Shown in pieces: positions 1,871 through 55,455 of a stretch of 57,194 nt of DNA. Source of the DNA: a virus (lineage: Duplodnaviria; Heunggongvirae; Uroviricota; Caudoviricetes); the IMG/VR virus record IMGVR_UViG_2778261542_000002, positions 1-57,194 of that record. The stretch is one strand, 5' to 3'. The first letter of the stretch is position 1, and each line of letters starts with the position of its first letter. Made by a program: the position numbers and the translations under genes. Below the pieces are notes generated by a model, which worked only from the letters and a program-made list of their open reading frames with translations, did not search any database and was not told the origin of the DNA.

Positions 1871-2286
1871 CAATCTATATTTGCCCAACAATGGGGGGAC
1901 GAATGCTGTAAAAGTAAAAGAATCTGCGATCTCAAAGTTATTGTGTGATTTTTATGTGAGCAGAAGATATTCATCAGAAACGATTATGTAAATCATTTTA
2001 TTTTGCCGACGACCTGATTGTCGAAAGAAAAGAATACCCCCGTATTCCCTGAATAGATTGACTTTTTTATCCAACCATACTTCAGCGCACTGCGTTTAAA
2101 AAATGCTTCTTTCTTATGTGGAATATCATCATTTCATCATGATGTCTTTGATGAGCGGTGAACACAATACACTTGCGCTGTCTCTTCAGGATGAATCCCC
2201 TGGTCTGGTGCCTGTGGGCTGATGTTGCAGCAGAGCTAAGGTCGCTTAAACGCTACTCAGTATTCACTTTTCAGAGGATGAAATTT

Positions 2287-5200
2287 ATGAACAGGACCAG
2301 TCCCCATTATTGTCGCCGCTCAGTACTTTCCTTATTGATATCTGCCTTGATATATGCCCCGCCCGGTATGGCGGCCTTCACTCCTGATGTTATTGGTGTG
2401 GTAAACGATGAGACTGTAGATGGCAACCAAAAAGTGGATGAACGAGGTACAACAAATAACACTCATATTATCAACCATGGCCAGCAGAATGTTCATGGCG
2501 GGGTATCTAATGGAAGTCTTATTGAATCTGGTGGATATCAAGATATAGGAAGTCATAACAATTTTGTGGGGCAGGCTAATAATACAACCATTAACGGTGG
2601 CAGACAGTCAATTCATGACGGGGGTATTTCCACAGGTACGACAATCGAGAGTGGCAATCAGGACGTTTATAAAGGGGGTATCAGCAATGGAACGACAATT
2701 AAGGGCGGTGCTTCACGCGTAGAGGGAGGGAGTGCGAATGGAATACTCATTGATGGTGGTAGCCAGATAGTAAAAGTTCAAGGGCATGCTGATGGTACAA
2801 CGATAAATAAGTCTGGCTCTCAGGACGTAGTACAAGGAAGTCTGGCAACGAACACAACCATAAATGGTGGTCGACAGTATGTTGAACAGAGCACAGTAGA
2901 AACAACAACCATTAAAAATGGCGGTGAGCAAAGAGTATATGAGAGCCGTGCGCTGGACACGACGATTGAAGGCGGAACTCAGTCTCTGAATAGTAAGTCA
3001 ACGGCAAAAATTACGCAGATCTATTCTGGTGGCACGCAAATTGTTGATAACACCAGCACCTCGGATGTTATTGAAGTTTATTCCGGTGGCGTGCTTGATG
3101 TTAGTGGTGGTACGGCAACAAATGTTACCCAGCACGATGGTGCAATTTTAAAAACAAACACTAACGGTACGACGGTGAGCGGTACGAATAGTGAAGGTGC
3201 ATTCTCCATCCACAATAAAGTGGAAGACAATGTGTTGCTGGAAAATGGAGGCCATTTAGAAGTATCTCATTCCGCAAACAAGACGATTATTAAAGATAAA
3301 GGAACAATGTCAGTTTTAACGAATGCTAAAGCTGATGCGACCCGAATAGATAATGGCGGGGTTATGGATGTTGCAGGAAACGCGACAAATACCATAATTA
3401 ATGGTGGCACACAGAATCTTAATAATTATGGCATAGCCACAGGCACCAATATCAACAGCGGAACGCAAAATATCAAAAGCGGTGGGAAAGCTGACACAAC
3501 AATTATATCCTCCGGGAGCCAGCAAGTTGTTGAGAAAGATGGTACGGCAATTGGCAGCAATATTAGCGCCGGAGGCTCGCTGATTGTCTATACCGGCGGT
3601 ATTGCACATGGGGTTAACCAGGAGACGGGCAGTGCTTTAGTTGCCAACACGGGCGCAGGGACTGATATTGAAGGATACAACAAGCTCTCTCACTTCACTA
3701 TTACCGGAGGGGAGGCTAATTATGTTGTGCTGGAAAATACCGGCGAACTGACGGTAGTGGCTAAAACCTCGGCGAAAAATACTACCGTTGATGCTGGCGG
3801 TAAGCTGATTGTCCAGAAGGAGGCTAAAACAGATACCACCAGACTTAATAATGGTGGCGTTCTGGAGGTTCAGGACGGTGGTGAGGCTAAGCATGTTGAG
3901 CAACAATCCGGCGGCGCATTAATTGCTTCCACAACTTCCGGAACCCTTATCGAAGGAACCAACAGTTATGGTGATGCTTTCTACATCAGGAATTCAGAAG
4001 CTAAAAATGTAGTGCTGGAAAACGCTGGCTCATTAACAGTCGTCACTGGTTCCCGGGCAGTTGATACGATTATTAATGCCAACGGCAAAATGGATGTTTA
4101 TGGAAAAGATGTTGGCACTGTACTTAATAGTGCTGGCACCCAAACAATATATGCCAGTGCCACTTCTGATAAAGCAAATATCAAAGGTGGCAAGCAAACG
4201 GTATATGGTTTAGCCACTGAGGCAAATATTGAAAGTGGTGAACAAATTGTTGATGGTGGGTCAACTGACAAAACGCACATCAATGGCGGCACACAAACCG
4301 TTCAGAATTATGGTAAGGCGATCAATACCGATATCGTCTCTGGCCTACAACAAATTATGGCAAACGGGATAGCGGAAGGTTCCATTATTAATGGGTGTTC
4401 ACAGGTAGTTAATGAGGGCGGTCTGGCTGAAAACTCGGTGCTTAATGACGGCGGCACACTCGATGTGCGGGAGAAAGGCAGCGCAACGGGGATACAGCAG
4501 AGTAGCCAGGGCGCTTTGGTTGCAACCACCAGGGCGACGCGGGTCACAGGAACACGCGCGGATGGCGTCGCGTTCAGCATCGAGCAGGGTGCGGCGAACA
4601 ATATCCTGCTGGCAAATGGCGGCGTGTTAACCGTGGAGTCAGACACCTCTTCTGACAAAACACAGGTCAATACGGGCGGACGGGAGATCGTCAAAACAAA
4701 AGCCACTGCGACAGGCACGACGCTCACCGGCGGCGAACAAATCGTCGAGGGGGTGGCGAATGAGACAACGATTAACGACGGCGGAATACAAACAGTTTCA
4801 GCTAACGGAGAGGCAATAAAAACAAAGATCAATGAAGGCGGTACGCTGACAGTTAACGATAATGGCAAAGCGACAGATATCGTCCAGAACAGCGGTGCCG
4901 CTCTCCAGACGAGCACGGCTAACGGTATTGAAATCAGCGGTACTCACCAGTACGGCACTTTTTCCATTTCCGGCAATTTAGCGACCAATATGTTGCTGGA
5001 AAATGGCGGTAATTTATTGGTATTAGCAGGTACCGAAGCTCGCGACTCCACGGTTGGCAGCGGTGGAGCCGCCAACGGCAGTTATCGCAGCTACGGGCTG
5101 GGCGGTCACATTGAAACCGGGATGCGATTTACCGATGGTAACTGGAACCTGACGCCGTATGCATCGTTAACGGGGGTTCACCGCTGATAACCCTGAATAT

Positions 5201-5542
5201 CATTTATCCAATGGCATGGAATCGAAATCAGTCGATACCCGCAGTTTATATCGTGAACTGGGTGCAACGCTGAGTTACAACATGCGTCTGGGGAACGGTA
5301 TGGAAGTTGAGCCGTGGCTGAAGGCGGCTGTGCGCAAAGAATTTGTCGATGATAACCGGGTGAAAGTGAATAGTGACGGTAATTTCGTCAATGATTTGTC
5401 GGGCAGACGTGGAATATACCAGGCAGGTATTAAAGCCTCATTCAGCAGTACGTTAAGCGGGCATCTTGGGGTGGGGTATAGCCATGGTGCCGGTGTGGAA
5501 TCCCCGTGGAACGGGGTAGCTGGTGTGAACTGGTCGTTCTGA
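2287..5542 (+). pseudogene. AIDA-I/Ag43-type autotransporter adhesin, disrupted by frameshift with truncated beta-domain
   Basis: Signal-peptide-like start MNRTSPHYCRRSVLSLLISALIYAPPGMAA; ~950 aa of degenerate G-rich passenger repeats (NGG.Q.V..GG); frame-1 stop at 5185-5187; a different frame continues from 5171 to 5542 and ends in the canonical aromatic C-terminus NWSF; beta-domain far shorter than a full ~280-aa barrel. Confidence 0.6.
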
Positions 5543-5694
5543 CCATCAACGAAAAAGCCCACATCTGTGGGCTTTCATGTCACCAGGAGCCGCGGCTCCT
5601 TTGCGTATCCTTTTATGTCTCTTCACCGTCTGGTCGGTGTCCTGCTGAGACTGCTAACTTCCTGTTTTTATTGGTGTTGTCCTTATACCGTCCA

Positions 5695-5720
5695 ATCATG
5701 ATTGGCTGGCGGAGTTTGAA
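5695..5720. repeat. degenerate left copy of the att core (imperfect direct repeat of 17464-17496)
   Basis: ATCATGATTGGCTGGCGGAGTTTGAA versus ATCATGATTTGGTGGAGCTGGCGGGAGTTGAA at the integrase-proximal end. Confidence 0.35.
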
Positions 5721-5773
5721 TAAATATTGTATTGCTTTGATTTTTAATGATTTTGTTTAATTCAGTTTTTGTG

Positions 5774-5796
5774 CGTATACCTAATCGTATACCAAT
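5774..5796. repeat. 23-bp motif CGTATACCTAATCGTATACCAAT, possible integrase arm-type site (copy 1)
   Basis: Near-identical copy (one mismatch) at 17339-17361 in the same orientation, each just inside an att-like repeat. Confidence 0.3.
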
Positions 5797-5857
5797 GGCT
5801 GTAAGTTAATGTGAAATGAAAGCGCATTTTTACTTGGATTGATGCTATATCGTACAG

Positions 5858-6156
5858 GAAAAAAATTTTTTTTCGGAAGAACTGTTCACACTGTTCACCT
5901 TTCTGTTTTTTCCTTTTATTTCAGTTGGATAGGTGGTGAATAATGGGTGAAGGGTGAACATTCGATTCTTCACCTCCGGCATTCTGCCGGTGTGACTCAT
6001 ACCGGCGATTAATCCTCCGCACTGAAAATCACACAGGAAGAAAAAAAGTTTTTTTTGATTTGATTGTTCACACTGTTCACCTTTCGTTTTTCTCTTTTGA
6101 TTTCAGTGTGATAACGGGTGAACATACGGTGAAGGGTGAACACTGGATTGTTCACC
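5858..6156. repeat. crr-like cis replication region: two ~115-bp direct repeats carrying TGTTCACC iterons
   Basis: Repeat units at about 5858-5974 and 6038-6156 are near-identical; each contains TGTTCACACTGTTCACC and GGGTGAAGGGTGAACA; sits just 3-prime of alpha, as crr does in P4. Confidence 0.55.
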
Positions 6157-6171
6157 TTCGGGGGATTCAGG

Positions 6172-6199
6172 GATGAAAAAAGACCGGCAGATGCCGGTC
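6172..6199 (-). terminator. putative rho-independent terminator of the alpha operon
   Basis: Perfect palindrome GACCGGCA/TGCCGGTC followed on the minus strand by a T-run, 17 nt after the alpha stop. Confidence 0.4.
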
Positions 6200-6215
6200 A
6201 GATGAGTCATGATGG

Positions 6216-8549
6216 TCAGGTTGTTGCAGGGTCGTCACATTTTGGCAGCCAGTCGCCGTAGCTTTCCTCTTTCAGCGTCAGGTTGGTCTGTATCCCCTGT
6301 TTGGTATGGCGCTTCTCGTAATTCAGTCCGTATTCCTTCAGCATCACCGGCAGCCCCAGCCCGAACATTTTCAGACTGAGTACATTCCGGTAGCCGTTTG
6401 CCTCCATGTAGGCCAGATAGGCGTGATAGAGGTATTTACGGTAATTACGCGGGATGATACTGGCGTTCCCCATATACATGCCGCTGGTCTGCGGCAGGGT
6501 TTCCAGATAGCCGATAAAATCAAACGTCGGGTCGGCATCCCGTTTGATGTTCAGTGCCTCGTCTGAGTTCTGCTGGGACTGAAGCAGTGACCGGGCGAGC
6601 ATCGGGTCGCTGAACTTCTGCATCAGGTGACGCACGATGACCGCCAGCTCGCGGGTGATTTTGTCCTTAAGCTGCGGGTCGCGCTCCTGCGGGGCTATCT
6701 GTTCCGGGAAGTGAATAATCACCCGCCGGCGTGACACGCCGCCGCTGCGGTCGGTGAAGCGCATCGGGTTATTGTTCACGGCCAGAATTACCGCCGGGAT
6801 GTGCGTGGAGTACGCATCCCGGTATTTCGGGTCAACGGACACCGCATCGCCGCCGGTGATGGCCTTGAGTCCGGCTCCGTCGCCGCTCCATTTTTCCTGG
6901 TCCGGCAGGCGTATCAGTGAGAAGCCAGTTAACGCGGCACGTTCACGCGGGGATTCCAGCGTCTCGATGGTGGCCGACGTGGCGTTATCCTCACCAGCCA
7001 GCAGGGTGGCTATTTCGGCCATGATACTTTTGCCGCTGCCGCCGGGACCGGTCACCTCCAGAAAGAGCTGCCAGTCGTAGCGGTTTGCCAGCACCATAAA
7101 CAGTGCGGCCAGAATCACGTCGCGTTTTTCCGCACGGCCACCGGCGGCACGGTCAAGCCAGCGCCAGAACGCGGGGGCGTGGGTCTCCAGTGTTTCACCG
7201 TCCACCGGCGGGGTGAAATCCACATCGCACAGGGTGCGCATCCAGTGTGACGGACTGTGCGGGTGGAACGTGCCGTTCTGCGTGTCGAGCACGCCGTTAC
7301 GAAAGCCAATCAGGCGGCGGGAGGGGGCTTCCTGCTGCGGAATAATCAGCTTCAGGGTGTCCACCACGGAGGCCACCTTCCCGGAGGAGAACGGCGCGCG
7401 CAGACGCTGAAACAGCCCGGCCACATCCCGGGCAAAGTCCTGTGGTGGCAGCACCTTCCAGACACCATTTTCATAGCGGGACAGAAGCTGGCCGTTGGCA
7501 TCAACCGCGAGCGCCTCGCCGTAATGCTCATAGATACGCATGGCCTTTTCGCTGGTACTCATGGCGGAAAACTCCGCTTCGCTCATGGTGTCGAACGGGC
7601 TTTCAGCCGGTGGCCGGATGGCATCGTAAATGGCCTTACGGGTGGCCTCCCCGCCGTACTGCGTGAAGGCATCATTCCAGTCACCGAAGACCGGCGGCAG
7701 GGCAACAACGCCCTCACACGCATCTGCGGCTGCGGCGGCTTTTGTCTGGCCGTCACCGCTGAGGTCACGGTCTGCGGCAAGGACAATCTGACAGGCCGGA
7801 TACTTCTGTCGGGCAAGGCTGGCCAGAGAAAGGAGGTTCACGGAAGAAAGCGCCACCATCACCGTTTCACCGGTCAGGTGATGCACGGTAAGTGCGGTCG
7901 CGTATCCCTCCGCTATCCACAGACGTTTTCCTGCCTGATTCTGTCCTTCAAGGGTGTGACAGGTGCCCCTGACCTGTCCGCCTTTCAGGGTGCGCTTACG
8001 GCCGTCAGCACTGATTAACTGAAGGTTAACCAGTTCGCCGCTGTCGTCATACAGTGGCACCACAAGGTCACCGGCGCGCCAGCTCACGCCACCGGCTCTG
8101 TGTGTGCCGGTCAGCATCCGGCATTCCCGGCCGGGAAAGCCCTTGCGGGTCAGGTAGGCGTTACCGGTTCCGGGACGGGTTTTTGCCATCAGGGTTTGTG
8201 CCAGTGCGGCGGCGTTCTTCCGGGCGGCTTCTGTTTCAGCACCGGCGGCGGCCGTCACTGCCGGGTCAGCCGGGGGCAGGCAGCCGGTCACGGCAGCCAC
8301 CTTTGCGGCCGCGTCGGACGGGGAAACACCAAACACCTTTTCAACCAGTTTCAGGCCGTCACCGGCACCACACTGATTGCAGTACCAGGTGCCACGCCCC
8401 TCCCTGTCATCAAAACGGAAGCGGTCACTCCCGCCACAGACCGGACAGGGCTGATGACGGTTCTTCAGCACCTGAATCCCCAGCGCCGGGAGAATACGCG
8501 GCCAGTGGCCGAGCGCATGGCTGACGGTGGCGGTTACGTTCATTTTCAT
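6216..8549 (-). CDS. alpha: P4 alpha-type primase-helicase (777 aa)
   Basis: N-terminal zinc-binding primase motif CPVCGGSDRFRFDD...WYCNQCG; Walker A GPGGSGKS; length identical to P4 alpha; flanked by iteron clusters. Confidence 0.9.
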   Translation of the reverse strand: MKMNVTATVSHALGHWPRILPALGIQVLKNRHQPCPVCGGSDRFRFDDREGRGTWYCNQCGAGDGLKLVEKVFGVSPSDAAAKVAAVTGCLPPADPAVTAAAGAETEAARKNAAALAQTLMAKTRPGTGNAYLTRKGFPGRECRMLTGTHRAGGVSWRAGDLVVPLYDDSGELVNLQLISADGRKRTLKGGQVRGTCHTLEGQNQAGKRLWIAEGYATALTVHHLTGETVMVALSSVNLLSLASLARQKYPACQIVLAADRDLSGDGQTKAAAAADACEGVVALPPVFGDWNDAFTQYGGEATRKAIYDAIRPPAESPFDTMSEAEFSAMSTSEKAMRIYEHYGEALAVDANGQLLSRYENGVWKVLPPQDFARDVAGLFQRLRAPFSSGKVASVVDTLKLIIPQQEAPSRRLIGFRNGVLDTQNGTFHPHSPSHWMRTLCDVDFTPPVDGETLETHAPAFWRWLDRAAGGRAEKRDVILAALFMVLANRYDWQLFLEVTGPGGSGKSIMAEIATLLAGEDNATSATIETLESPRERAALTGFSLIRLPDQEKWSGDGAGLKAITGGDAVSVDPKYRDAYSTHIPAVILAVNNNPMRFTDRSGGVSRRRVIIHFPEQIAPQERDPQLKDKITRELAVIVRHLMQKFSDPMLARSLLQSQQNSDEALNIKRDADPTFDFIGYLETLPQTSGMYMGNASIIPRNYRKYLYHAYLAYMEANGYRNVLSLKMFGLGLPVMLKEYGLNYEKRHTKQGIQTNLTLKEESYGDWLPKCDDPATT

Positions 8550-8563
8550 GGTGTTGTTCTCCT

Positions 8564-8884
8564 TCAGTGCAGTACCGGCGCTTTTATGTGACGGGCACAG
8601 AGTTCATCCATCACAACCAGCCCGAGAAAGGACAGCGACGGCGCGGCCTTCAGGGGGCCGGATTCCATTAAATCTTCCAGCAGGGCACAGGCTATCTGAC
8701 GCCCTTTTTCCTCACCGTGCTGGCGCAGATAAAAGCCTTCCAGCTCAGCGGCGATGGCCGCCTCCAGTGACTCAAGGGTGAGATGCGGGTAGCGGTGCTG
8801 ACGTTCGCACACGGTCAGCCAGGCACAGGCGACAGCGCGACGGTAAAGGGCAGCGCGTAAGACGGGCGGTAAGGGTGTTTTCAT
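8564..8884 (-). CDS. hypothetical protein (106 aa) in the alpha operon
   Basis: ORF in operon context between the 151-aa ORF and alpha; no motif recognised. Confidence 0.55.
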
Positions 8885-9019
8885 TTGTTTTCCTCCCTGT
8901 GACAGATGACTGCATTCCGTGCCGGTTGCATTAACTGATAAGGCATATCTGCGTCTCCTGAAGACGTGCGTATCCCTGCGCGAATACGCACATTTAATTT
9001 TTCGGGTATCGTTTTTTAA

Positions 9020-9475
9020 TTACAGATAATTGCGGTAACTGTTATCCGGGGTGATTTCCGGGTCAGGCTCCGTGCGGGGAATTTCCCGCCATTCCCGCGC
9101 CACCGGTGCCGCCCGGCTGGCCGGAACAGTGTCCTGCGGGTAAATATCCAGATATTTCTCCCGCCATTTCTGTAATTCCGGGTCTCCGGCCATTTCTTTC
9201 AGTACCGCATGCCGGTTTACGGGGCTGCGTTTAAACAGGTCAGGACGGTCACAGGTAAATTCCCGCAGAAAACGCCCCAGCGGGATGTCTGTGGTGCGCC
9301 CGTCATCGAGGATACGCACAAGGATACTGAATTTACGGCGGTACGGGTTCCAGACAATGTCCGGGCAGCGGTACGGCATTTCCCACGGAATACCGTCTTC
9401 CAGAATGCCGACCACGGCCACATCGGGAAAACCGGCAGAACGGTAAATCTCACCGGGCTGGGGAAAATCAAACAT
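9020..9475 (-). CDS. hypothetical protein (151 aa), size-matched to P4 orf151
   Basis: ORF in operon; start overlaps the stop of the upstream gene (ATGTTTGA). Confidence 0.6.
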   Translation of the reverse strand: MFDFPQPGEIYRSAGFPDVAVVGILEDGIPWEMPYRCPDIVWNPYRRKFSILVRILDDGRTTDIPLGRFLREFTCDRPDLFKRSPVNRHAVLKEMAGDPELQKWREKYLDIYPQDTVPASRAAPVAREWREIPRTEPDPEITPDNSYRNYL

Positions 9476-9755
9476 GCGTCCTGTCTCCCCGGTCTTTCTG
9501 CTGGGCGAGAAAATCGCGGCACAGGCCTTTGGCTTTCAGCTCATTCAGCACAAAATCAATATCTTCATTCAGGTAGCTGAAAATATGCGGAATGTAGAGC
9601 TGATGCAGGCCGGAGAGTTCACGGTGAATCAAATCACCCCCAACAAACTGGGATACGGCGCTGGCGCGGTTGAGCTTATGGTAAGCCTCAATGCTGAGGT
9701 GTTCACGGGCGTCATGACGTGCTGAGACGGTCTGAGGGGCTTTTTTATTACGCAC
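9468..9755 (-). CDS. epsilon-like small protein (95 aa), GTG start
   Basis: GGAGGTG Shine-Dalgarno 5 nt before GTG at 9755; positioned where P4 encodes the derepression protein epsilon; identity to epsilon not verified. Confidence 0.45.
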
Positions 9756-9945
9756 GGGACACCTCCACCACCGGCAGACGGGCAGCAAGGGAGAGCACAT
9801 AGTCACGGACAAGGGAACGGCGGGCGCTGCGTTCATCACCGGCGACGGTGCGAAGCATGCAGATACGGGGATGACGGTCTGCGCGACGGACAGCCGCAAA
9901 CACAAAGACAAATTCAGGGTGTGAGGGGGTAAGGGTTGTAGCCAT
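9748..9945 (-). CDS. small hypothetical protein (65 aa)
   Basis: ATG at 9945 preceded by GGAGG with 7-nt spacing; stop overlaps the epsilon-like GTG (GTGCGTAA); the longer 211-aa ORF upstream is not supported. Confidence 0.3.
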
Positions 9946-10334
9946 AAGGCAGCCTCCTTCGAGTAGCAAATAACTGCTATCGCCGGAGTTCTCACGCTCG
10001 ATGGCGATAGCCCAGACGGGGGTGAGAATACCGGCCTCGAAGAATACCGGCCAGCCCGGAGGCTGCCCCGCCTGAGCTACCATTGACTCAGTGGCATAAC
10101 ATGCGATTGCGAACAGGATCATACCTGCACGGCAAACCACACGCCACACCATAATCTGGCGCTCTGTGGCGTTGATTGCGACACAAAAAAAGACGCATGG
10201 CGCGTCATATGTCGCCTTCGAGTTACACGGGTTCTCACGCCCGGCTGCCGATTTTGCGGCAGCGGAAAAACTATATCCGCAAATGCCGGAAAAAGGCAAG
10301 CCAGAAAAAGGGACTTTTTGCAGAACAGGCATCA

Positions 10335-10601
10335 TCATGCGTCGTACCCCCGTTTGCGTCCGGCAATGCGGCCGGCCATCCATGCGGTGACTTCAGAGTG
10401 CAGCCAGGCCACATTTTTACCGCCAAGACTCACCTGCGGCGGAAATTCCCCCTTACGGATGAGTTCATAGATGGTCGAGCGTGACAGGCCGCACAGGTGC
10501 ATCACTTCCGGAAGACGTAAAAAACGCTCCTGTGTGATGTCCGGCAGCGGCATCAGTGGCGTCACAGGGGCGGGAGACGGGGAAGAAAAAACAGCTTGCA
10601 T
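10335..10601 (-). CDS. alpA: AlpA-family phage transcriptional regulator
   Basis: HTH segment [50 protein letters not shown] typical of AlpA; Shine-Dalgarno GAGGT before the ATG. Confidence 0.8.
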
Positions 10602-10750
10602 CGGGCTACCTCGTTAATGTCCATACAGCACCGGATAAGTCCGTCCGGCTTCGGGTAGCGCTTTATTTTGTGAATATTTTCAGCAGACGCAACAGGGGGG
10701 ATTTGTTCCGGCAGCCTTACAATGGTTGTGTGTTTTTTGTTCATTTCCAC

Positions 10751-10780
10751 TTAAAGTCATTTAAAGCCACTTAAAGCAAT
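10751..10780. repeat. three tandem 10-bp repeats TTAAAG(T/C)CA(T/C) upstream of the alpA-alpha operon
   Basis: TTAAAGTCAT TTAAAGCCAC TTAAAGCAAT in helical phase; candidate operator. Confidence 0.3.
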
Positions 10781-10880
10781 TTGTAATTTTTATAGTGAAA
10801 TACAAATCGTTTCTTCTTATTCATTCCCGGCGAATTAATAAAAACAAACAGTAGTAAACAGCACAAAAAGTCCATGAGCG

Positions 10881-10985
10881 GGTGAACAGTGGTGAACAGA
10901 CGGTGAACAGTCATTACTGCGATTGTTCATCCTTTAACTTACTGTATTACTTATCTTTTTTATTAAGGTGAACAGAGGTGAACAG
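10881..10985. repeat. ori-like iteron cluster (five GGTGAACAG = TGTTCACC reverse complement)
   Basis: Three tandem GGTGAACAG at 10881-10910, two more at 10967-10985, plus inverted GATTGTTCATCC; lies ~4.8 kb from the crr cluster with alpha between, as in P4. Confidence 0.55.
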
Positions 10986-11063
10986 TAAAATATAAAAAAA
11001 CAAACAGTAAGCCGGTTTTTCCTGCGACCTTTTCCTGGCTTGCCGGTGTGAGGATGAGTCTCC

Positions 11064-11081
11064 TGTGTCAGGGCTGGCACA
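11064..11081 (+). promoter_or_regulatory. TGT-N12-ACA dyad, candidate Ogr/Delta activator site of the sid late promoter
   Basis: TGTgtcagggctggcACA centred ~80 bp upstream of the sid ATG; P2/P4 late promoters use this dyad. Confidence 0.4.
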
Positions 11082-11153
11082 TCTGCAATGCGTCGTGTTG
11101 CTGTCCGGTGTACGTCACAATTTTCTTAACCTGAAGTGACGAGGAGCCGGAAA

Positions 11154-11888
11154 ATGTCTGACCACACTATCCCTGAATATCTGAAACCCGCACTGGCACA
11201 ACTGGAAAAGGCCAGAGCCGCCCATCTTGAGAACGCCCGCCTGATGGATGAGACCGTCACGGCCATTGAACGGGCAGAGCAGGAAAAAAATGCGCTGGCG
11301 CAGGCCGACGGAAACGACGCTGACGACTGGCGCACGGCCTTTCGTGCAGCCGGTGGTGTCCTGAGCGACGAGCTGAAACAGCGCCACATTGAGCGCGTGG
11401 CACGCCGGGAGCTGGTACAGGAATATGACAATCTGGCCGTGGTGCTGAATTTTGAACGCGAACGCCTGAAAGGGGCGTGTGACAGCACGGCCACCGCCTA
11501 CCGGAAGGCACATCATCACCTGCTGAGTCTGTATGCAGAGCATGAGCTGGAACACGCCCTGAATGAAACCTGTGAGGCGCTTGTCCGGGCAATGCATCTG
11601 AGCATCCTGGTACAGGAAAATCCGCTCGCCAACACCACCGGCCATCAGGGCTACGTCGCACCGGAAAAGGCTGTCATGCAGCAGGTGAAATCATCGCTGG
11701 AACAGAAAATAAAACAGATGCAAATCAGCCTCACCGGCGAGCCGGTTCTCCGGCTGACCGGACTGTCAGCGGCAACACTCCCGCACATGGATTATGAGGT
11801 GGCAGGCACACCGGCACAGCGCAAGGTGTGGCAGGACAAAATAGACCAGCAGGGAGCAAAGCTTAAGGCCAGAGGACTGCTGTCATGA
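11154..11888 (+). CDS. sid: Sid-like capsid size-determination protein (244 aa)
   Basis: GAGGAG Shine-Dalgarno; 244 aa as in P4 Sid; position sid-delta-psu; helical, Ala/Glu/Gln-rich. Confidence 0.75.
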   Translation: MSDHTIPEYLKPALAQLEKARAAHLENARLMDETVTAIERAEQEKNALAQADGNDADDWRTAFRAAGGVLSDELKQRHIERVARRELVQEYDNLAVVLNFERERLKGACDSTATAYRKAHHHLLSLYAEHELEHALNETCEALVRAMHLSILVQENPLANTTGHQGYVAPEKAVMQQVKSSLEQKIKQMQISLTGEPVLRLTGLSAATLPHMDYEVAGTPAQRKVWQDKIDQQGAKLKARGLLS

Positions 11889-12385
11889 TTTACTGCCCGT
11901 CGTGTGGACATGTTGCTCACACCCGTCGCGCACATTTCATGGACGATGGCACCAAGATAATGATTGCACAGTGCCGGAATATTTATTGCTCTGCGACATT
12001 TGAAGCGAGTGAAAGCTTTTTCTCTGACTGTAAAGATTCAGGAATGGAATACATTTCAGGCAAACAGAGATACCGCGATTCACTGACGTCAGCCTCCGGC
12101 AGCATGAAGCGCCCGAAAAGAATGCTTGTTACCGGATATTGTTGTCGGAGATGTAAAGGCCTTGCGCTGTCAAGAACATCGCGGCGTCTGTCTCAGGAAG
12201 TCACCGAGCGTTTTTATGTGTGCACGGATCCGGGCTGTGGTCTGGTGTTTAAAACGCTTCAGACCATCAACCGCTTCATTGTCCGCCCGGTCACGCCGGA
12301 CGAGCTTGCAGAAAGCCTGCATGAAAAACAGGAACTGCCGCCAGTACGGTTAAAAACACAATCATATTCGCTGCGTCTGGAATGA
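11885..12385 (+). CDS. delta: Delta-type late-gene transactivator (166 aa, two Ogr-like zinc-finger repeats)
   Basis: Two Cys clusters (CPSCGH...C..IYC and CCRRCKG...CTDPGCG), the P4 Delta duplicated-Ogr architecture; 166 aa. Confidence 0.8.
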   Translation: MIYCPSCGHVAHTRRAHFMDDGTKIMIAQCRNIYCSATFEASESFFSDCKDSGMEYISGKQRYRDSLTSASGSMKRPKRMLVTGYCCRRCKGLALSRTSRRLSQEVTERFYVCTDPGCGLVFKTLQTINRFIVRPVTPDELAESLHEKQELPPVRLKTQSYSLRLE

Positions 12386-12458
12386 GGGCTGCCGGTTAAC
12401 ACCGGCCGTCGCCGCACACCGTATTTTTATTCTTCAGCATGATGAGAAAGAGATAACG

Positions 12459-13031
12459 ATGGAAAGCACAGCCTTACAGCAGGCCTTTGACACCTGTCAG
12501 AATAACAAAGCAGCATGGCTGCAACGCAAAAATGAGCTGGCTGCGGCCGAACAGGAATATCTGCGGATTCAGTCAGGAGAAGGCAGAAACGTCAGTCGCC
12601 TGGACGAATTACGCAATATTATCGAAGTCAGAAAATGGCAGGTGAATCAGGCCGCCGGTCGTTATATTCGTTCGCATGAAGCCGTTCAGCACATCAGCAT
12701 CCGCGACCGGCTGAATGATTTTATGCAGCAGCACGGCACAGCACTGGCGGCGGCACTGGCACCGGAGCTGATGGGCTACAGTGAGCTGACGGCCATTGCC
12801 CGAAACTGTGCCATACAGCGTGCCACAGATGCCCTGCGTGAAGCCCTTCTGTCCTGGCTTGCGAAGGGGGAAAAAATTAATTATTCCGCACAGGATAGTG
12901 ACATTTTAACGACCATCGGATTCAGGCCTGACGCGGCTTCGGTGGATGACAGCCGTGAAAAATTCACCCCTGCGCAGAACATGATTTTTTCGCGTAAAAG
13001 TGCGCAACTGGCATCACGTCAGTCTGTGTAA
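12459..13031 (+). CDS. psu: Psu-like polarity suppression / capsid decoration protein (190 aa)
   Basis: 190 aa as in P4 Psu; last gene before cos; sequence begins MESTALQQAF, as I recall for P4 Psu. Confidence 0.75.
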   Translation: MESTALQQAFDTCQNNKAAWLQRKNELAAAEQEYLRIQSGEGRNVSRLDELRNIIEVRKWQVNQAAGRYIRSHEAVQHISIRDRLNDFMQQHGTALAAALAPELMGYSELTAIARNCAIQRATDALREALLSWLAKGEKINYSAQDSDILTTIGFRPDAASVDDSREKFTPAQNMIFSRKSAQLASRQSV

Positions 13032-13066
13032 AATTCCCCGAAAATCCTCCCGTTTTTACTGAAAAA

Positions 13067-13106
13067 AGCCATGCATCGATAAGGTGCATGGCTTTGCATG
13101 CGTTTT
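13067..13106 (+). terminator. putative terminator after psu
   Basis: 9-bp perfect stem AGCCATGCA/TGCATGGCT followed by a T-containing tract. Confidence 0.3.
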
Positions 13107-13195
13107 CCTGCCTCATTTTCTGCAGACCGCACCATTCCCGGCGCGGTCTGAGCGTGTCAGTGCAACTGCATTAAAACCGCCCCGCAAAGCGGGCG

Positions 13196-13214
13196 GGCGA
13201 GGCGGGGAAAGCAC
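13196..13214. other. cos site (P2/P4 19-nt cohesive end)
   Basis: Exact GGCGAGGCGGGGAAAGCAC, the P2/P4 cohesive-end sequence as I recall it, immediately after psu. Confidence 0.6.
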
Positions 13215-13334
13215 TGCGCGCTGTGGGTGCATAACCAAAAGTTTTGATGTCGTAAATATGCGCAAGATACTGGTTTCTGAAACTCGAGGTTGATATCTTA
13301 CTTGTCAAAAGGATATGAGATAAGGAGTGTATAA

Positions 13335-16076
13335 ATGGCCAGGCCGTTACCACTGAATAAAGATTTGATAGTTTGTGTACCTAGTAATTATTCCAATACC
13401 TCGAGAGGGAAGTTTTTCGAGAATTTTTGCGCTGATATACTCCGCCGGCAATCGTATAGAATTGATGGTATGGAAGTCAGAAAATCTGGCATGGAAATTG
13501 ATATTCAGGCTACTCATACACCATCAAATGAAAAGCTGTATGTAGAATGTAAATTCATGCAGCAAAAAGTTGATTCATCTGTGGTTGATTTGGCATTTTC
13601 TCAAGCATTTAGGTTGAGAGTTAAAAAAATTGCACTTTTTTCAATTTCTGATTTGGGTAAAGATGCTCAGTCAACGCTTGAGGATTATAGACTTGATGAG
13701 CGTATAGATTATTCTTTTTTTGATAAAAAAGAGATTCTTATATCTATACTTGCAACAGGTAAGGTTGAGGATATTCCAACAGATGACATTCCGGCAAAAT
13801 ATACTAGTGCAACACTTTTAGTTCATCCTGAAATAGAAATGACTTGGCTTTTGCAAGAAGTTGAAAATGGTAGCCCTATAAGAGTGGTGCCGTTCGCTAT
13901 AAATAAAAATAGTAAAATTCCAAGTGTCAGTCGCATAAGTGATATTATAAAGGAGCAAGGGCTTTTTGAAGGGTTGGAAGTAACTGATTTTTATATATTA
14001 TCTGAACCGGAACAAACTGTTTCGTCTTCAAAATTATCTGAAAATTACGAAAGGGAAATTGTCAGTGAAATAATTCTTGCTGACGATTTTATGGATTATA
14101 AGCCATGTCAGCCGAAAGACTTTGTTGGTCGCGAATATATACAGAAAGAAGTTTGGGATTATCTTGAGAATGTTAGAGGAAATAGCTCTCAAAGTAGAGT
14201 CCTATCACTTATAGGCGGTTCAGGAAATGGAAAGTCATCTTTAATAGCAAGGCTATCCTCAAGATTTAAAAATCAAAAATGGAAGAATAAATTCTTCCTT
14301 ACACCAGTCGATGTCCGTTCTGCTAGAGGCGGACGTTTTGTGGCAGAAGCTGTCGTTAAAGCTTTCAGCAGTGCGATCAAAGAAGGTTTTATCGAATATG
14401 AAAAACCATTCCTGATTGAGAGTGTTACGGATATCATAGGATCTGAGAGTGTTCAGGAATGTTTAAAATACCTTTCCGAACATGATAAGGTATTGACTAT
14501 TTTCTTTGATCAGTTCGAAGAAGTCTTTATGAAAGAGGAACTATTCGGGCTATTTAAAGAATTTGAACGATTCGCACTCGATGTCTCGGCACTACAAAGC
14601 AATTTAGTTGTAGGGTTCTCATGGAGAACTGGTATTACTTTAGGGGATGAAAATCCAGCGTACTCAATGTGGAATCGGCTAAAAGATTATAGGGTTGAAA
14701 AGAAACTTGAGCCTTTTGATCTAAAAGATTCATCTAAATTAATTAATAGTTTCGAGCTAAATACAGGGTTTAAATTAAATAAACCTTTACGCACGCGTCT
14801 TATTCAGCAAGCTCAAGGTTATCCATGGTTATTGAAAAAGCTTTGTATTCATGTATTCAAAAAACTAAAAGGAGGTATCTCACAGGATCAAATGTTGGTT
14901 AGTCAACTACAGATCTCAAATTTATTTCATGAGGATTTAGATAGGCCTGAAAAACAAAATTCATGTTTAAAATTTGTGGCAAAGAACTCTCCGATTAGTC
15001 AATATGAAGTTACTAAAGAGTTTGGGAGTGATACTGTTTTAGAGCTAATTTCAGATAGGATGGTAATTAAAACAGGTGAAAAATTATCAGTGTATTGGGA
15101 CGTTTTTCGAGATTACTTGAAAGGAAATGACCTTCCAGTTATACCATGGTCATATATGCCATCAACATCTCCGAAAATGGTTTTGTTAATTCTTGATGTT
15201 GTAAACTCGTTCAAAACCATTAGCTTGGATGAACTGCAAACTAAACTAAAATATAGTCGGGGAACATTAATAAATGTTTTAATGGATTTGCAGTATTTTG
15301 TTCTCATAGACAGAGATTTAAATGGGAATATAGTTTGTAAACAGACTATCACAAATGTCCCTGAGTTTCTTCGTGAGCATTTTAAGAGTCATAGTGTTTT
15401 GTTAGAATTGGCAGAGAATATTGTTGATGCCGATTTAAGAAGAGTTCCTATCGATAAGTATGAATCTATAATAGCCCATACTTATAAGAATAAAGACGGT
15501 GGTTATCCTAAGTCTTATAGTTCAAAATTATTGGCTTGGTTACAATTTACGGGGCTGATAGCGGTTATCGGGAAATCTGTGGTTATATATGATGGCGAGT
15601 TGTTTTCCCCAGCATTTGGGGCGATTGATCTAGATAAAAGAGGGGCACGCAATAGAAGAGGATCACTTTTCTTAGCTGCTACTTCGCCAGAAAAAACACT
15701 CGAAGTTGCCGAGTATCTGTGCGCCAATAAAAAAATGAGCCATTCATTCATTCAGGCGAATAAACATAGGAATGCAGTGCAGGATTTAATTTCTTTAGGT
15801 TTTTGTTCTCGACAAGATGATGGTGTGGTGATAAATAATAAAATAGAAGTTATATTAGAAAGCATCAGCCTTGAAAGGGCTTTAGCTAGGTTAGTCACTG
15901 AATCTCCAGCTATCAAAATATTAAATGCTTATGTAAATAAATTTGGCGATGATGATAAGAAAATGATGGGGGCAGCACTAGCAAAAGAACTTGAGAGAAC
16001 ATGGACACCTGCATCTACTACTAGATATATTTATGCACTAATGAGATATCGAAATTTCGCATTGGAAACTTTATAA
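13335..16076 (+). CDS. 913-aa fusion protein: N-terminal Mrr-type PD-(D/E)xK nuclease signature + STAND-type P-loop NTPase + ~350-aa C-terminal region; candidate antiviral gene
   Basis: AAGGAG Shine-Dalgarno; AT-rich in a GC-rich element; N-terminus FENFCADILRRQSYRIDGMEVRKSGMEIDIQA...LYVECKF (Mrr catalytic pattern); DFVGRE lead-in, Walker A LIGGSGNGKSS, Walker B LTIFFDQFEE, GYPWLL (GxP-like). Confidence 0.85.
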   Translation: MARPLPLNKDLIVCVPSNYSNTSRGKFFENFCADILRRQSYRIDGMEVRKSGMEIDIQATHTPSNEKLYVECKFMQQKVDSSVVDLAFSQAFRLRVKKIALFSISDLGKDAQSTLEDYRLDERIDYSFFDKKEILISILATGKVEDIPTDDIPAKYTSATLLVHPEIEMTWLLQEVENGSPIRVVPFAINKNSKIPSVSRISDIIKEQGLFEGLEVTDFYILSEPEQTVSSSKLSENYEREIVSEIILADDFMDYKPCQPKDFVGREYIQKEVWDYLENVRGNSSQSRVLSLIGGSGNGKSSLIARLSSRFKNQKWKNKFFLTPVDVRSARGGRFVAEAVVKAFSSAIKEGFIEYEKPFLIESVTDIIGSESVQECLKYLSEHDKVLTIFFDQFEEVFMKEELFGLFKEFERFALDVSALQSNLVVGFSWRTGITLGDENPAYSMWNRLKDYRVEKKLEPFDLKDSSKLINSFELNTGFKLNKPLRTRLIQQAQGYPWLLKKLCIHVFKKLKGGISQDQMLVSQLQISNLFHEDLDRPEKQNSCLKFVAKNSPISQYEVTKEFGSDTVLELISDRMVIKTGEKLSVYWDVFRDYLKGNDLPVIPWSYMPSTSPKMVLLILDVVNSFKTISLDELQTKLKYSRGTLINVLMDLQYFVLIDRDLNGNIVCKQTITNVPEFLREHFKSHSVLLELAENIVDADLRRVPIDKYESIIAHTYKNKDGGYPKSYSSKLLAWLQFTGLIAVIGKSVVIYDGELFSPAFGAIDLDKRGARNRRGSLFLAATSPEKTLEVAEYLCANKKMSHSFIQANKHRNAVQDLISLGFCSRQDDGVVINNKIEVILESISLERALARLVTESPAIKILNAYVNKFGDDDKKMMGAALAKELERTWTPASTTRYIYALMRYRNFALETL

Positions 16077-16083
16077 TTATTAA

Positions 16084-16107
16084 ATCATAGGGCGAAAGCC
16101 CTATGAT
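16084..16107. terminator. bidirectional hairpin between the convergent 913-aa gene and int
   Basis: Perfect 10-bp stem ATCATAGGGC/GCCCTATGAT with GAAA loop, T-rich flank. Confidence 0.4.
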
Positions 16108-17288
16108 TTTACTTTTATACCCCACCATGACATCAATTCTCTGCGTTGTTCTAAATAAATAGAACGATTATACGCCCGCCGTACTTCATTTTTATCTATA
16201 TGCGCTAAAGCTGATTCTATAATATCGGAATTAAAACCAGACTCGTTCAACGCTGTGCTAGCTATAGAACGAAGCCCATGAGCAACGAGTTTACCGCCAT
16301 AACCAATCCTTTTAAGAGCAGCATTAGCAGTTTGGCTATTCATAGGTTGTTTAGGATCATTCCTGCTGGGAAAAACATGTTCTCGGTGAGCGCTAATTGG
16401 CTTCATTACATCCAGAATCTCTAATGCCTGTGGTGATAAAGGAACAATGTGTTCCCGCTTAGCTTTCATCCGTTCGGCTGGAATAGTCCAGAGCTTCGTA
16501 TCGAGATCGATCTCTGCCCAACGGGCACCAGAGGCCTCAGAAGGGCGCACGAGCGTCAGGAGTTGCCATTCAATGAGACAGCGAGTCGGAACAGACAGAT
16601 TTGACATGACTAAAGAACGCATCAGCTTCGGCAATTCTTCTGGCCGCAGCGTCGGCATGTTTTGTTTTTTGGGCTTCTCAAAGGCCATTCCAATACCTGA
16701 TGCTGGATTGGCATCAATCAGACCAGTGTTTACGGCATAAATCATTATCTCGTTAATACGCTGCACTAGTCGACGTACAGTCTCAAGCGCTCCACGAGCT
16801 TTGATTGGTTCCAATGCTTCAACTAATATTCGGGCTTTAATTTGCTGAACGGGGATCTCACCGATGGCAGGGAATACATCTTTCTCCAATGAGCGCCAAA
16901 TGTCTTTTGCGTAATCAGGGGTAACGCTTTTACTTTTGAGCTGGAACCAGTTAGCGGCGACCATTGAGAAAATACTGTCCAGAGCGATTTGCTGCTGTTC
17001 CTCTGCAACTTCGGCCTGAATTTGTGGGTCAATTCCGTTGGCTAACAAGGCAAGGTAATCCGCTCTTAACCCTCGGGCGTCAGCAAGTGAAAGGGCGGGG
17101 AAAGCACCAAGCCCCATCATTGTCCGCTGTTTTGTCGCTGGACGTTGATAACGGAAACGCCAGAGCTTTTTCCCGCTGGTTTTCACTATCAGGAAAAGGC
17201 CATCGCCATCATGCAGAGTTAGATCCTTCTCTAACGCTTTAGCGCGAAGAACTTCGGTGTTGGTAAGGGGGCGTGTTGTCCGTGCCAC
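16101..17288 (-). CDS. int: P4-type tyrosine integrase (395 aa)
   Basis: Catalytic-domain boxes (LTLVRPSEASGARWAEIDL; HGLRSIASTAL...RAYNRSIY); adjacent to att core; GTG start. Confidence 0.9.
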   Translation of the reverse strand: MARTTRPLTNTEVLRAKALEKDLTLHDGDGLFLIVKTSGKKLWRFRYQRPATKQRTMMGLGAFPALSLADARGLRADYLALLANGIDPQIQAEVAEEQQQIALDSIFSMVAANWFQLKSKSVTPDYAKDIWRSLEKDVFPAIGEIPVQQIKARILVEALEPIKARGALETVRRLVQRINEIMIYAVNTGLIDANPASGIGMAFEKPKKQNMPTLRPEELPKLMRSLVMSNLSVPTRCLIEWQLLTLVRPSEASGARWAEIDLDTKLWTIPAERMKAKREHIVPLSPQALEILDVMKPISAHREHVFPSRNDPKQPMNSQTANAALKRIGYGGKLVAHGLRSIASTALNESGFNSDIIESALAHIDKNEVRRAYNRSIYLEQRRELMSWWGIKVKS

Positions 17289-17338
17289 TGTGGCCGCTCC
17301 TTCATGAATTGGTATACGCTTTTAGGTATACATCCTAC

Positions 17339-17361
17339 CGTATACCTAAACGTATACCAAT
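17339..17361. repeat. 23-bp motif CGTATACCTAAACGTATACCAAT, possible integrase arm-type site (copy 2) within a cluster of GTATAC repeats
   Basis: Direct repeat of 5774-5796; additional GTATAC copies at 17311-17336. Confidence 0.3.
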
Positions 17362-17402
17362 AATCACCGGATTTAGCCGGATGTTCTCGGACAACGACAG
17401 AC

Positions 17403-17437
17403 ACAAAAAAGCCCGCAGGGCTTGTGCCATGCGGGCT
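17403..17437 (-). terminator. rho-independent terminator between att core and int
   Basis: AGCCCGCA/TGCGGGCT stem followed on the minus strand by TTTTTT; positioned as a tmRNA-gene terminator would be. Confidence 0.45.
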
Positions 17438-17472
17438 TTCTGTACTTCACCGGACGTATCCGGATCATGATT

Positions 17473-17503
17473 TGGTGGAGCTGGCGGGAGTTGAACCCGC
17501 GTC
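17473..17503 (-). other. att core identical to the 3-prime 31 nt of ssrA (tmRNA); the tmRNA gene itself is absent
   Basis: Minus strand reads GACGCGGGTTCAACTCCCGCCAGCTCCACCA, the tmRNA acceptor/T-arm end as I recall it; upstream sequence does not continue as tmRNA. Confidence 0.7.
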
Positions 17504-17628: not shown

Positions 17629-18315
17629 TTACTTCTCATTTTCAAAGTCATCACGAATGTTAATTAGATCTGTAATCAAAGCGCCAACTTTAGTTGAAGG
17701 ATTTATCGAACCGTCTTTTTTGGCGGCATCTTCGACTCTTTTAGCATTGATTAATGCCGTATCGAGCCGATCTTGCAATTTATTAAATACACCTGATGCC
17801 TTTTTCTCATAATCTGGCATGTATTTTTTTAACTCAGCTAGCATTTGTGCGCCTTCACTTTTGCCTTTCTGAGGTGAAAATGATTTTCGGGTGTATCCAA
17901 AATGTAGTATCAGCCAGTACTCGAAACATGGTATGGAAGTTATAGCAACAAAAATCCCTTTTGGATTTAAGGAATTAATCCTGCTAAGAGCTTCATCATA
18001 GTTAGGGTGAGCGTCTCTATCAAAGACACAATAAACCTTATCATAAGGGTCGCTCCTTTTTTTTTCCGTATTATATTTTTCTTTTGCCCAAGATACCACA
18101 TTCATAGGGCTTGAGCCGCACTCTCCAGAAATCTCAACTATGCTTGCCGTGCTTATACGGCAATGTTTTATAAAATCTGTAAAATATGCGGGCTCAGTCT
18201 TCTCTCCCTCACAGACGATAAGAATTTTCTTCATTTGAGCTCGTGCTTTACTAACTCGTTTGAATTCATTATTACGCCGAGCCTTTCTTTTTTTGAACAG
18301 ATCTTCGCTTCCCAT
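17629..18315 (-). CDS. RloB-like protein (AbiLii-like partner of the ATPase)
   Basis: N-terminal ILIVCEGEKTEPAYF and CVFDRDAHPNYDE acidic motifs, read as RloB/Toprim-like; likely start is the ATG overlapping the upstream stop (TAATG), preceded by GGGAGAG. Confidence 0.65.
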   Translation of the reverse strand: MGSEDLFKKRKARRNNEFKRVSKARAQMKKILIVCEGEKTEPAYFTDFIKHCRISTASIVEISGECGSSPMNVVSWAKEKYNTEKKRSDPYDKVYCVFDRDAHPNYDEALSRINSLNPKGIFVAITSIPCFEYWLILHFGYTRKSFSPQKGKSEGAQMLAELKKYMPDYEKKASGVFNKLQDRLDTALINAKRVEDAAKKDGSINPSTKVGALITDLINIRDDFENEK

Positions 18316-39406: not shown

Positions 39407-39420
39407 TCAGGAGAAATACG

Positions 39421-40626: not shown

Positions 40627-40675
40627 TCACTCAGGGGCGCGGAACCGCGCCCCCTGTTCTGACGGGTGAAGAATC

Positions 40676-40876
40676 ATGATCCTGAAACAAGATCTGAAAT
40701 GGTCACCGGACGGTATGCGTGTTGAGGTCATTCGGGCCGGTGAGTATGACGACGGGGCGCTTCCTGCCCGGGTGCAGGAGATTGCACTTCAGGCCGGGTT
40801 AGCAGAGCGCGGAATCAGTGCAAAAAGCAGTAAAGCGGCAAAAGAGAAAAAAGCCACGACCAGTAAAGAGGGCTGA
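40676..40876 (+). CDS. hypothetical small head-module protein (66 aa)
   Basis: ORF in operon. Confidence 0.4.
   Translation: MILKQDLKWSPDGMRVEVIRAGEYDDGALPARVQEIALQAGLAERGISAKSSKAAKEKKATTSKEG

Positions 40877-54585: not shown

Positions 54586-55455
<870 letters not shown>

Follow-up and report, generated by a model that had tools for sequence, protein, structure and literature searches.

The locus at positions 5695 to 17503 of a 57,194-nt viral record (IMG/VR IMGVR_UViG_2778261542_000002; the whole record is referred to as the window) raises the question of whether a P4-like satellite phage is present there in full, and whether such an element could still leave its site. Our analysis identified a complete P4-type satellite prophage of ~11.77 kb in Escherichia coli EC1722-1. 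An IntA-like tyrosine integrase put the element at the 3′ end (CCACCA) of ssrA, the tmRNA gene, and an SfII-like prophage, a later user of the same site, now stands between the element and ssrA. We assign this reading a probability of roughly 0.9.

The P4-type backbone and its immunity region

The original prediction described a P4-like satellite with ori, crr, cos, and sid-delta-psu, delimited by imperfect direct repeats, and proposed an alignment to the P4 reference genome. That alignment supported the satellite reading and showed the element to be complete: positions 5860 to 13221 of the window are collinear with P4 positions 4291 to 11624 plus 1 to 26, at 97.6% nucleotide identity (7.35 kb) and without interruption across cos, and the P4 genes are full length, being neither fragmented nor rearranged. 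Homology to P4 ends at 13221, ~7 nt past cos. Each of the seven core genes of the satellite (int, vis/alpA, epsilon, alpha, sid, delta, and psu) is full length, with ori, crr, cos, and the CI RNA likewise complete. The integrase apart, the encoded proteins with P4 counterparts are 97.6 to 100% identical to those of P4, with no truncation. P4-like satellites of Type A have been defined by seven core components (Moura de Sousa et al. 2023, PMC10085698). Pfam, PHROG, and P4 comparisons recovered every SatelliteFinder component of this type, namely, integrase, psu, delta, sid, alpA/vis, epsilon, and alpha, in the Type A order, with psu-delta-sid preceding alpA, epsilon, and alpha and with the integrase at one end. 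The element itself carries neither capsid nor tail nor terminase genes (no P2 structural homologue was found), and its cos is of the helper type.

The genes lie in the same order as in P4. On the minus strand, alpha (6216 to 8549; 777 aa), a primase-helicase and origin-binding protein, is 98.8% identical to P4 alpha over 776 aa and matches the PHROG DNA primase family (E 1e-242); it is followed by orf106 (8564 to 8884; DUF5375; 100% to P4 ORF106), orf151 (9020 to 9475; 98.0% to P4 ORF151), epsilon (9468 to 9755; 95 aa), the helper derepression protein (98.9%), and vis (10335 to 10601; 88 aa), an AlpA-family regulator and excisionase (98.9% to P4 ORF88; Pfam Phage_AlpA). On the plus strand are sid (11154 to 11888; 244 aa; 99.2%), the capsid size determination scaffold; delta (11885 to 12385; 166 aa; 97.6%), an Ogr-like late gene activator with two matches to P2 Ogr; and psu (12459 to 13031; 190 aa; 98.4%), a polarity suppression and capsid decoration protein. 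The gene sizes and order predicted to reproduce P4 for alpha, epsilon, sid, delta, and psu were thus confirmed, at 97.6 to 99.2% identity.

The noncoding parts of the backbone were also as predicted. The 19-nt cohesive end GGCGAGGCGGGGAAAGCAC occurs at 13196 to 13214 (plus strand), is identical to that of P2 and P4, and is the sole copy in the window. The crr region (5858 to 6161; P4 crr 4291 to 4590) consists of two 122-nt direct repeats (5858 to 5979 and 6040 to 6161; 79% mutual identity) with TGTTCACC type-1 iterons, and the ori cluster (10881 to 10984; P4 type-1 repeats 9310 to 9413) comprises five minus-strand TGTTCACC copies. This iteron occurs 14 times in the window versus 1.8 expected, with a maximum of 5 across 100 shuffles; six copies lie at 5892 to 6156 in crr and five in ori, and the two clusters, ~4.7 kb apart, flank alpha as proposed.

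Divergence from P4 peaks in the left-operon leader and immunity region (9748 to 10338, minus strand), which contains an Ash/Icd-like reading frame (Pfam Phage_ASH, E 6.6e-22) and is 83% identical to the cI-ORF137 stretch of P4. A CI immunity RNA of the Rfam C4 antisense family (RF01695, 74.3 bits) lies at 10000 to 10087 (minus strand), and its target seqA (Rfam c4-a1b1/isrK; RF03163, RF01394) lies at 10186 to 10276 (minus strand). The second target, seqC, is located near 9960 to 9972. Here, seqB reads TCTTCGAG, compared to CCTGTGAA in P4, and both seqA and seqC have changed from TTCACAGG to CTCGAAGG, compensating for the seqB change. The pairing that gives P4 its immunity specificity, seqB CCUGUGAA with seqA and seqC, is therefore not the one encoded. 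Since the CI RNA and both of its targets have covaried, the element is predicted from its sequence to be heteroimmune to P4.

Integration at ssrA

The 395-aa integrase (16101 to 17288, minus strand) comprises Arm-DNA-bind_3, Phage_int_M, and catalytic domains and is 62% identical to K-12 IntA and 37% identical to P4 Int. Its arm-binding N-terminal and catalytic domains, together with the use and duplication of the ssrA 3′ end, are those of an IntA/P4-type integrase that targets ssrA. The imperfect direct repeats initially noticed at 5695 to 5720 and 17464 to 17496 are real, and both are copies of the ssrA 3′ end. The proximal att site, attL (17464 to 17503, minus strand), consists of ATCATGATT, the crossover hexamer TGGTGG, and ssrA 3′ sequence, with 17473 to 17503 corresponding to 31 perfect nucleotides of the tmRNA 3′ end. 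This is all of ssrA that the window contains: ARAGORN and Rfam found no tmRNA gene within it, and the full gene lies ~950 nt past the window end. The distal site, attR (5695 to 5720), is composed of native ATCATGAT, what remains of the crossover hexamer (TGG, with 4 nt lost), and an element-borne, degenerate ssrA-like block, CTGGCGG-AGTTTGAA. We considered whether this block is the displaced native ssrA end and rejected the idea because the block is constant beside four different left flanks.

The native chromosomal sequence that lies downstream of ssrA, with the gene's own terminator at ~5556 to 5580, occupies positions 5552 to 5694 (minus strand), outside the element. This flank is continuous with ssrA in Escherichia ruysiae and Escherichia sp. 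E1V33, where the unoccupied attB is seen, and the homologous K-12 position lies just before psaA, the attR of CP4-57. In other complete genomes, the same element directly adjoins the full ssrA gene; there, an element-borne terminator (17409 to 17423, minus strand) replaces the native one.

The 23-nt motif reported to recur just inside each end was confirmed (5774 to 5796 versus 17339 to 17361; 96% identical). At the left end it forms the P arm, a tandem pair of CGTATACC arm-type motifs on the plus strand, 53 nt from the core; this spacing equals that of the P4 arm repeats (4151 to 4174) relative to the P4 core (4078 to 4097). The P′ arm (17311 to 17361) contains two inverted CGTATACC copies on the minus strand (17311 to 17318 and 17325 to 17332) and a tandem pair on the plus strand (17339 to 17361), and its distance to the crossover hexamer is 111 nt, compared to 112 nt in P4. 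Moreover, the 57-kb window has six exact CGTATACC copies, five of which fall within 100 nt of the element ends. It is by this geometry (~111 and 53 nt from the core versus 112 and 53 nt in P4) that the motifs qualify as candidate integrase arm sites. Across 13 IMG/VR loci, the P-arm block is constant beside varying left flanks, which, together with the unoccupied sites, localizes the crossover to TGGTGG, complementary to the CCACCA end of the tmRNA. A match in Salmonella houtenae consists of a 174-nt P′-arm remnant next to ssrA and then an IS element, and did not help to define attP.

The cargo gene between cos and int

The gop, beta, and cII genes of P4 have no match in the element; their place is taken by a single gene of low GC content (33 to 37%) at 13335 to 16076 (plus strand), separated from the converging int gene by a hairpin terminator (16082 to 16109). 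The 913-aa product (WP_000113630.1) combines an Mrr_cat nuclease, an nSTAND1 NTPase, and a C-terminal domain. Rousset et al. 2022 (PMC9122126) have already listed WP_000113630, under the label Mrr_cat, as psu-int hotspot cargo of P4-like elements in E. coli. Residues D56, E71, and K73 and the Walker A and B motifs (GKS and DQFEE) are invariant in 56 homologues. The protein thus has the Avs/AVAST architecture, in which an effector at the N terminus is joined to a STAND NTPase and the catalytic motifs are conserved, and the best fold match of its predicted model was Avs4 (PDB 8DGF; Foldseek E 2.7e-11), where an N-terminal Mrr-type nuclease likewise precedes a STAND NTPase. However, the two share 12% identity, Avs4 is 1,534 aa long, and the cargo protein lacks a TPR sensor: its C-terminal 363 aa match no Pfam family and are modeled as mixed helix and short-strand units. 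PADLOC defense models gave a weak DndF match and no AVAST match at E 0.001, so the sequence does not belong to the described Avs types; neither a PHROG family nor a relative by PDB sequence search was found.

Its architecture and location point to a candidate anti-phage role. The protein would most likely act as an Avs-like sensor that binds a phage product, oligomerizes via its NTPase, and releases the nuclease, leading to abortive infection. The satellite carries a candidate Mrr-STAND defense gene amenable to cloning.

Mobility of the satellite and its relation to known systems

The life cycle proposed here is carried over from what has been published on P4. The CI RNA of the lysogen would pair with seqA and seqC, terminating left-operon transcription. 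Infection by a P2-like helper would bring about mutual activation, in which the satellite responds to helper Cox and Ogr and the helper to Delta and Epsilon. Int and Vis would then excise the element, and Alpha would replicate it from ori with crr. Sid would force helper gpN into small capsids, which Psu would decorate, and the helper terminase would cut cos and package the genome.

Competence for replication and packaging, as originally suggested, is a reasonable assumption; whether the element can excise is doubtful, given the 4 nt missing from the inferred crossover hexamer of the distal att site. This 4-nt deletion lies in the inferred overlap region. Of 15 copies of the junction that were sampled, about half show this or a comparable small deletion, the losses being of 3 nt, 4 nt, or more. 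The junction occurs in 217 complete genomes, and strain 23AR0151, for example, has the canonical attR. Excision of the EC1722-1 copy may therefore be impaired. In addition, Vis is the P4 protein, whereas Int and the att arms belong to another lineage. The att model predicts a circular attP junction of ...CCGGATCATGATT-TGGTGG-GCTGGCGGAGTTTGAATAAAT, which was not found in low-power searches of IMG/VR viral and JGI metagenome contigs. With the crossover hexamer mapped and the attR deletion known, excision is simple to test.

One alternative deserves weight, namely, that the EC1722-1 copy, its genes intact, no longer excises and persists as a fixed island whose sole current role is host defense via the STAND nuclease, perhaps with interference against incoming P2-like phages. 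The attR deletions and the failure to find a free attP junction are in line with this view, as are the 40-kb prophage that stands between the element and ssrA and the lack of a resident helper: as first noted, no P2-like helper is present in the window, where P2 proteins had no homologue except for Ogr matching Delta, and a P2 O/N probe detected no P2-like O or N genes on the source chromosome either. On the other hand, satellites commonly lack a resident helper, attL is intact, and the mobility genes, at 97 to 100% identity to P4 and with no frameshifts, are apparently under purifying selection. Furthermore, the attR of K-12 CP4-57 is similarly imperfect, yet that element reportedly excises. 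We regard permanent immobilization as possible and as the less probable outcome. That the attR deletions are a recurrent, selected means by which the host locks a defense-carrying satellite into its chromosome, as opposed to random decay, seems to us unlikely.

The adjacent SfII-like prophage might be thought to be the helper, which would explain the tandem, since the two are physical neighbors and have an att site in common: the attL block of the satellite doubles as the distal att copy of the prophage. This is highly improbable. The prophage has an HK97-type head and a P27-type small terminase and encodes nothing similar to P2 gpN, gpO, gpP, gpM, or Ogr, whereas the Sid, Delta, Epsilon, and cos of the satellite are almost identical to their P4 counterparts, which are specific for P2-type partners. 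Moreover, among the 53 complete genomes with the element, the tandem occurs in a single one, and the same prophage is found beside other ssrA islands elsewhere. Similarly, a decayed P4 remnant like the cryptic CP4-57, with fragments of satellite functions only, would fit the shared chromosomal site and the related integrase but is refuted by the full-length, collinear P4 genes from crr to cos, and CP4-57 itself lacks alpha, sid, delta, psu, and cos.

The complete P4-type satellite supported by these data shares with K-12 CP4-57 (IntA, AlpA, attR "psaA") the integration site, the degenerate ssrA-like block at the distal junction, and an AlpA-family regulator, with integrases 62% identical; it differs in its arm motifs and in having the P4 replication, capsid-size, and cos functions. 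Compared to P4 itself (NC_001609/X51522; 11.62 kb), the element shows the same order of crr, alpha, orf106, orf151, epsilon, the CI RNA region, vis, ori, sid, delta, psu, and cos and the same att architecture, with a core flanked by equally spaced arm repeats. However, the arm motif sequence differs, P4 uses leuX rather than ssrA, and neither P4 Int nor a leuX-matching attP core nor gop-beta-cII is present. The element displays modular exchange cleanly: on a backbone otherwise identical to that of P4, the immunity RNA, the int/att module, and the cargo of the hotspot have been swapped. This is of little importance beyond annotation. With the E. coli P4-like satellites that carry psu-int defense hotspots (PMC9122126 and PMC10085698), it shares the seven core components and the variable cargo extending from just after cos to int. 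From these it shows no essential difference, the EC1722-1 copy being set apart only by its tandem with a prophage and its small attR deletion; the element is of an ordinary, already catalogued kind.

P4 backbone and cargo gene

By megablast and blastn, P4 4291-11624 was collinear with window positions 5860-13195 at 97.6% identity, and the match ran on past the cohesive end into P4 1-26. Comparison of P4 proteins with the window by tblastn gave full-length matches for alpha (98.8%), ORF106 (100%), ORF151 (98.0%), epsilon (98.9%), Vis (98.9%), Sid (99.2%), Delta (97.6%), and Psu (98.4%); P4 gop, beta, and cII had no match in the window. Alignment to the P4 reference therefore upheld the original prediction that alpha, epsilon, sid, delta, and psu are present, full length, and in P4 order. 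The two predicted iteron clusters were also recovered: TGTTCACC occurs 14 times in the window versus 1.8 expected from shuffling, with six copies at 5892-6156 and five at 10881-10984. The former cluster consists of two 122-nt direct repeats (5858-5979 and 6040-6161; 79% identical to each other) that match the annotated P4 crr, in keeping with the crr-like repeats first proposed. The P2/P4 19-nt cos sequence, likewise anticipated, is present as a single copy at 13196-13214. The features first listed for this region are therefore all real and well above chance. A RefSeq 69-aa hypothetical protein (WP_071590453.1; 13084-13293), for which no Pfam family was found, spans cos, and this reading frame is probably not a gene.

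P4 homology ends a few bases past cos, and a single 913-aa gene comes next (13335-16076), with a GC content of 33-37% versus 53-64% for the P4 backbone. Its product combines an N-terminal Mrr_cat nuclease with an nSTAND1 NTPase; 56 homologues from many phyla share, without variation, D56, E71, and K73 as well as the Walker A (GKS) and Walker B (DQFEE) motifs. The best match to its AlphaFold model (pLDDT 82.8) was Avs4 with bound phage portal (8DGF, E 2.7e-11). None of the PADLOC AVAST models matched, the sole PADLOC hit being a weak DndF; there was no match in PHROGs or among PDB sequences, and no Pfam family in the C-terminal third. The exact accession, WP_000113630, recurs among the psu-int cargo tabulated in the supplement of Rousset et al. 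2022 (PMC9122126), where Mrr_cat is also described as an effector of STAND proteins found at this hotspot. An Avs-like abortive-infection sensor is the most likely role for the cargo.

Attachment sites and integrase

Imperfect direct repeats had been reported at the element ends, and both proved to be related to ssrA. In the right repeat, 17473-17503 reads TGGTGGAGCTGGCGGGAGTTGAACCCGCGTC, the reverse complement of the final 31 nt of tmRNA, while the left repeat (5695-5720) lies 153 nt past the ypjA stop, where K-12 has psaA, annotated as attR of CP4-57. The adhesin gene itself (autotransporter ypjA/ehaD) is an annotated pseudogene, its coding sequence split between two reading frames at 2158-5187 and 5216-5542. 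Where the site is empty, as in E. ruysiae and Escherichia sp. E1V33, the sequence is ...CCGTCCAATCATGAT-TGGTGG-AGCTGGCGGGAGTTGAACCCGCG..., which identifies 5552-5703 as native flank downstream of ssrA; the same flank also abuts ssrA in many E. coli genomes. The P arm of the element was found in 13 IMG/VR loci, across which the block -GCTGGCGG-AGTTTGAA-taaatattg is constant and the sequence to its left varies: some loci have native flank there, and others have the P' arm of a different ssrA island. Thus, the degenerate ssrA-like block travels with the element, and exchange falls within the hexamer TGGTGG, which is complementary to the tmRNA CCACCA 3' end. We infer that attP is ...CCGGATCATGATT-TGGTGG-GCTGGCGGAGTTTGAATAAAT..., giving a predicted circular form of ~11.77 kb compared with 11.62 kb for P4.

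The canonical distal junction, ATCATGATTGGTGGGCTGGCGG, is present in three comparison loci (L003, L030, and L034). The window instead has ATCATGATTGGCTGGCGG, 4 nt shorter within the crossover hexamer (5703-5706), as do L031 and L032; losses of 3 nt or larger affect the same spot in other loci, and hexamer deletions were recorded in L024, L025, L028, L031, L032, and L035. In about half of the sampled junction copies, the distal TGGTGG has a small deletion of 3 nt, 4 nt, or more. Since tyrosine recombinases require matching overlap regions, the 4-nt loss at attR may impair excision of the window copy.

Five of the six exact window copies of CGTATACC adjoin the element ends, together with a sixth, near-copy (TGTATACC) at 17325. 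These sites form tandem pairs at 5774-5796 and 17339-17361, the motif originally placed just inside each end, and two inverted copies at 17311 and 17325. The pairs lie 53 and 111 nt from the core, compared with 53 and 112 nt for the annotated P4 arm repeats, which by analogy supports the proposal that they could be integrase arm sites. The integrase (16101-17288, 395 aa) has Arm-DNA-bind_3, Phage_int_M, and catalytic domains, and shares 62% identity with the ssrA-specific K-12 protein IntA but only 37% with P4 Int (tblastn).

In two IMG/VR contigs (L023 and L029), the same P arm runs straight into a CP4-57-like island at the P' arm of the latter. Tandem arrays in which a satellite with this att module precedes another ssrA island therefore also exist. 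In Salmonella houtenae AGRM01000002.1 (L022), a 174-nt P' arm remnant (16001-16174; 96.6% identical) adjoins Salmonella ssrA, with an IS element at the expected integrase position; an element of the same att type has been lost here, leaving this trace.

Genomic neighborhood and helper

The window is identical to part of the E. coli EC1722-1 chromosome (NZ_CP081192.1; window coordinate = record coordinate - 1,134,853). The order is ypjCB, ypjA, the element, the 31-nt ssrA fragment, a ~40-kb prophage, and then ssrA and smpB, slightly past the window end. Among complete E. coli genomes, 53 of 5,426 carry the element; in 50 genomes other than EC1722-1, such as strain 23AR0151, it directly abuts full ssrA (98.9% identity).

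The intervening 40-kb prophage (17504-57194 and beyond), an SfII/SfI-like myovirus in ssrA, parts the satellite from that gene. It has an HK97-type head, a P27-type small terminase, a Mu-type tail, and an integrase at 19771-20967, and also carries AbiL and restriction-modification systems. The AbiL-type defence pair comprises AbiLii/RloB (233 aa) and AbiLi/AAA_21 ATPase (421 aa); it occupies 17629-19580 on the minus strand, with the att site on one side and the integrase on the other. At the ssrA-proximal end (~55234-57194; 38088-40764 in comparison locus L005) are a DNA cytosine methyltransferase and a type II restriction endonuclease, the latter gene cut off by the window end. Only EC1722-1, among the 5,426 genomes, has the satellite/SfII-like tandem. 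In strain EC01440, the same prophage adjoins a different ssrA island, with the same 31-nt repeat; the tandem therefore reflects coincidental use of one att site.

A search of the window with 23 P2 proteins found no homologue except Ogr, which matched Delta, in agreement with the original reading that no P2-like helper lies within it. Beyond the window, a chimeric blastn probe (2.6 kb unique to EC1722-1 plus 1.4 kb of P2 O/N) hit one place on the EC1722-1 chromosome, versus two in related strains; thus, at blastn sensitivity, no P2-like capsid gene is detectable there.

Immunity and relation to known satellites

Rfam placed a CI immunity RNA of the C4 family at 10000-10087 (minus strand) and its upstream target (c4-a1b1 and isrK) at 10186-10276. 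Divergence from P4 is greatest at 10000-10200, with 33 differences in 200 nt. Whereas P4 has seqB CCTGTGAA and seqA and seqC TTCACAGG, the element has TCTTCGAG and CTCGAAGG, respectively, and the changed seqB still pairs with the changed targets, with one G-U. These compensatory changes, all within 9955-10280 (minus strand), predict an immunity type different from that of P4, that is, heteroimmunity. A difference of this kind has been reported between P4 and retronphage phiR73.

Given the near-identity to P4, published P4 work suggests how the element would live. In the lysogen, transcription would be terminated through the CI RNA; with a P2-like helper, mutual trans-activation would be expected. 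Int and Vis would excise the element, Alpha would replicate it from ori with crr, Sid would direct small-capsid assembly with decoration by Psu, and helper terminase would cleave cos. For excision, the P4-type Vis would have to serve an IntA-like integrase with different arms. The element is a Type A P4-like satellite, as defined in PMC10085698, of an already catalogued subtype with known biology.
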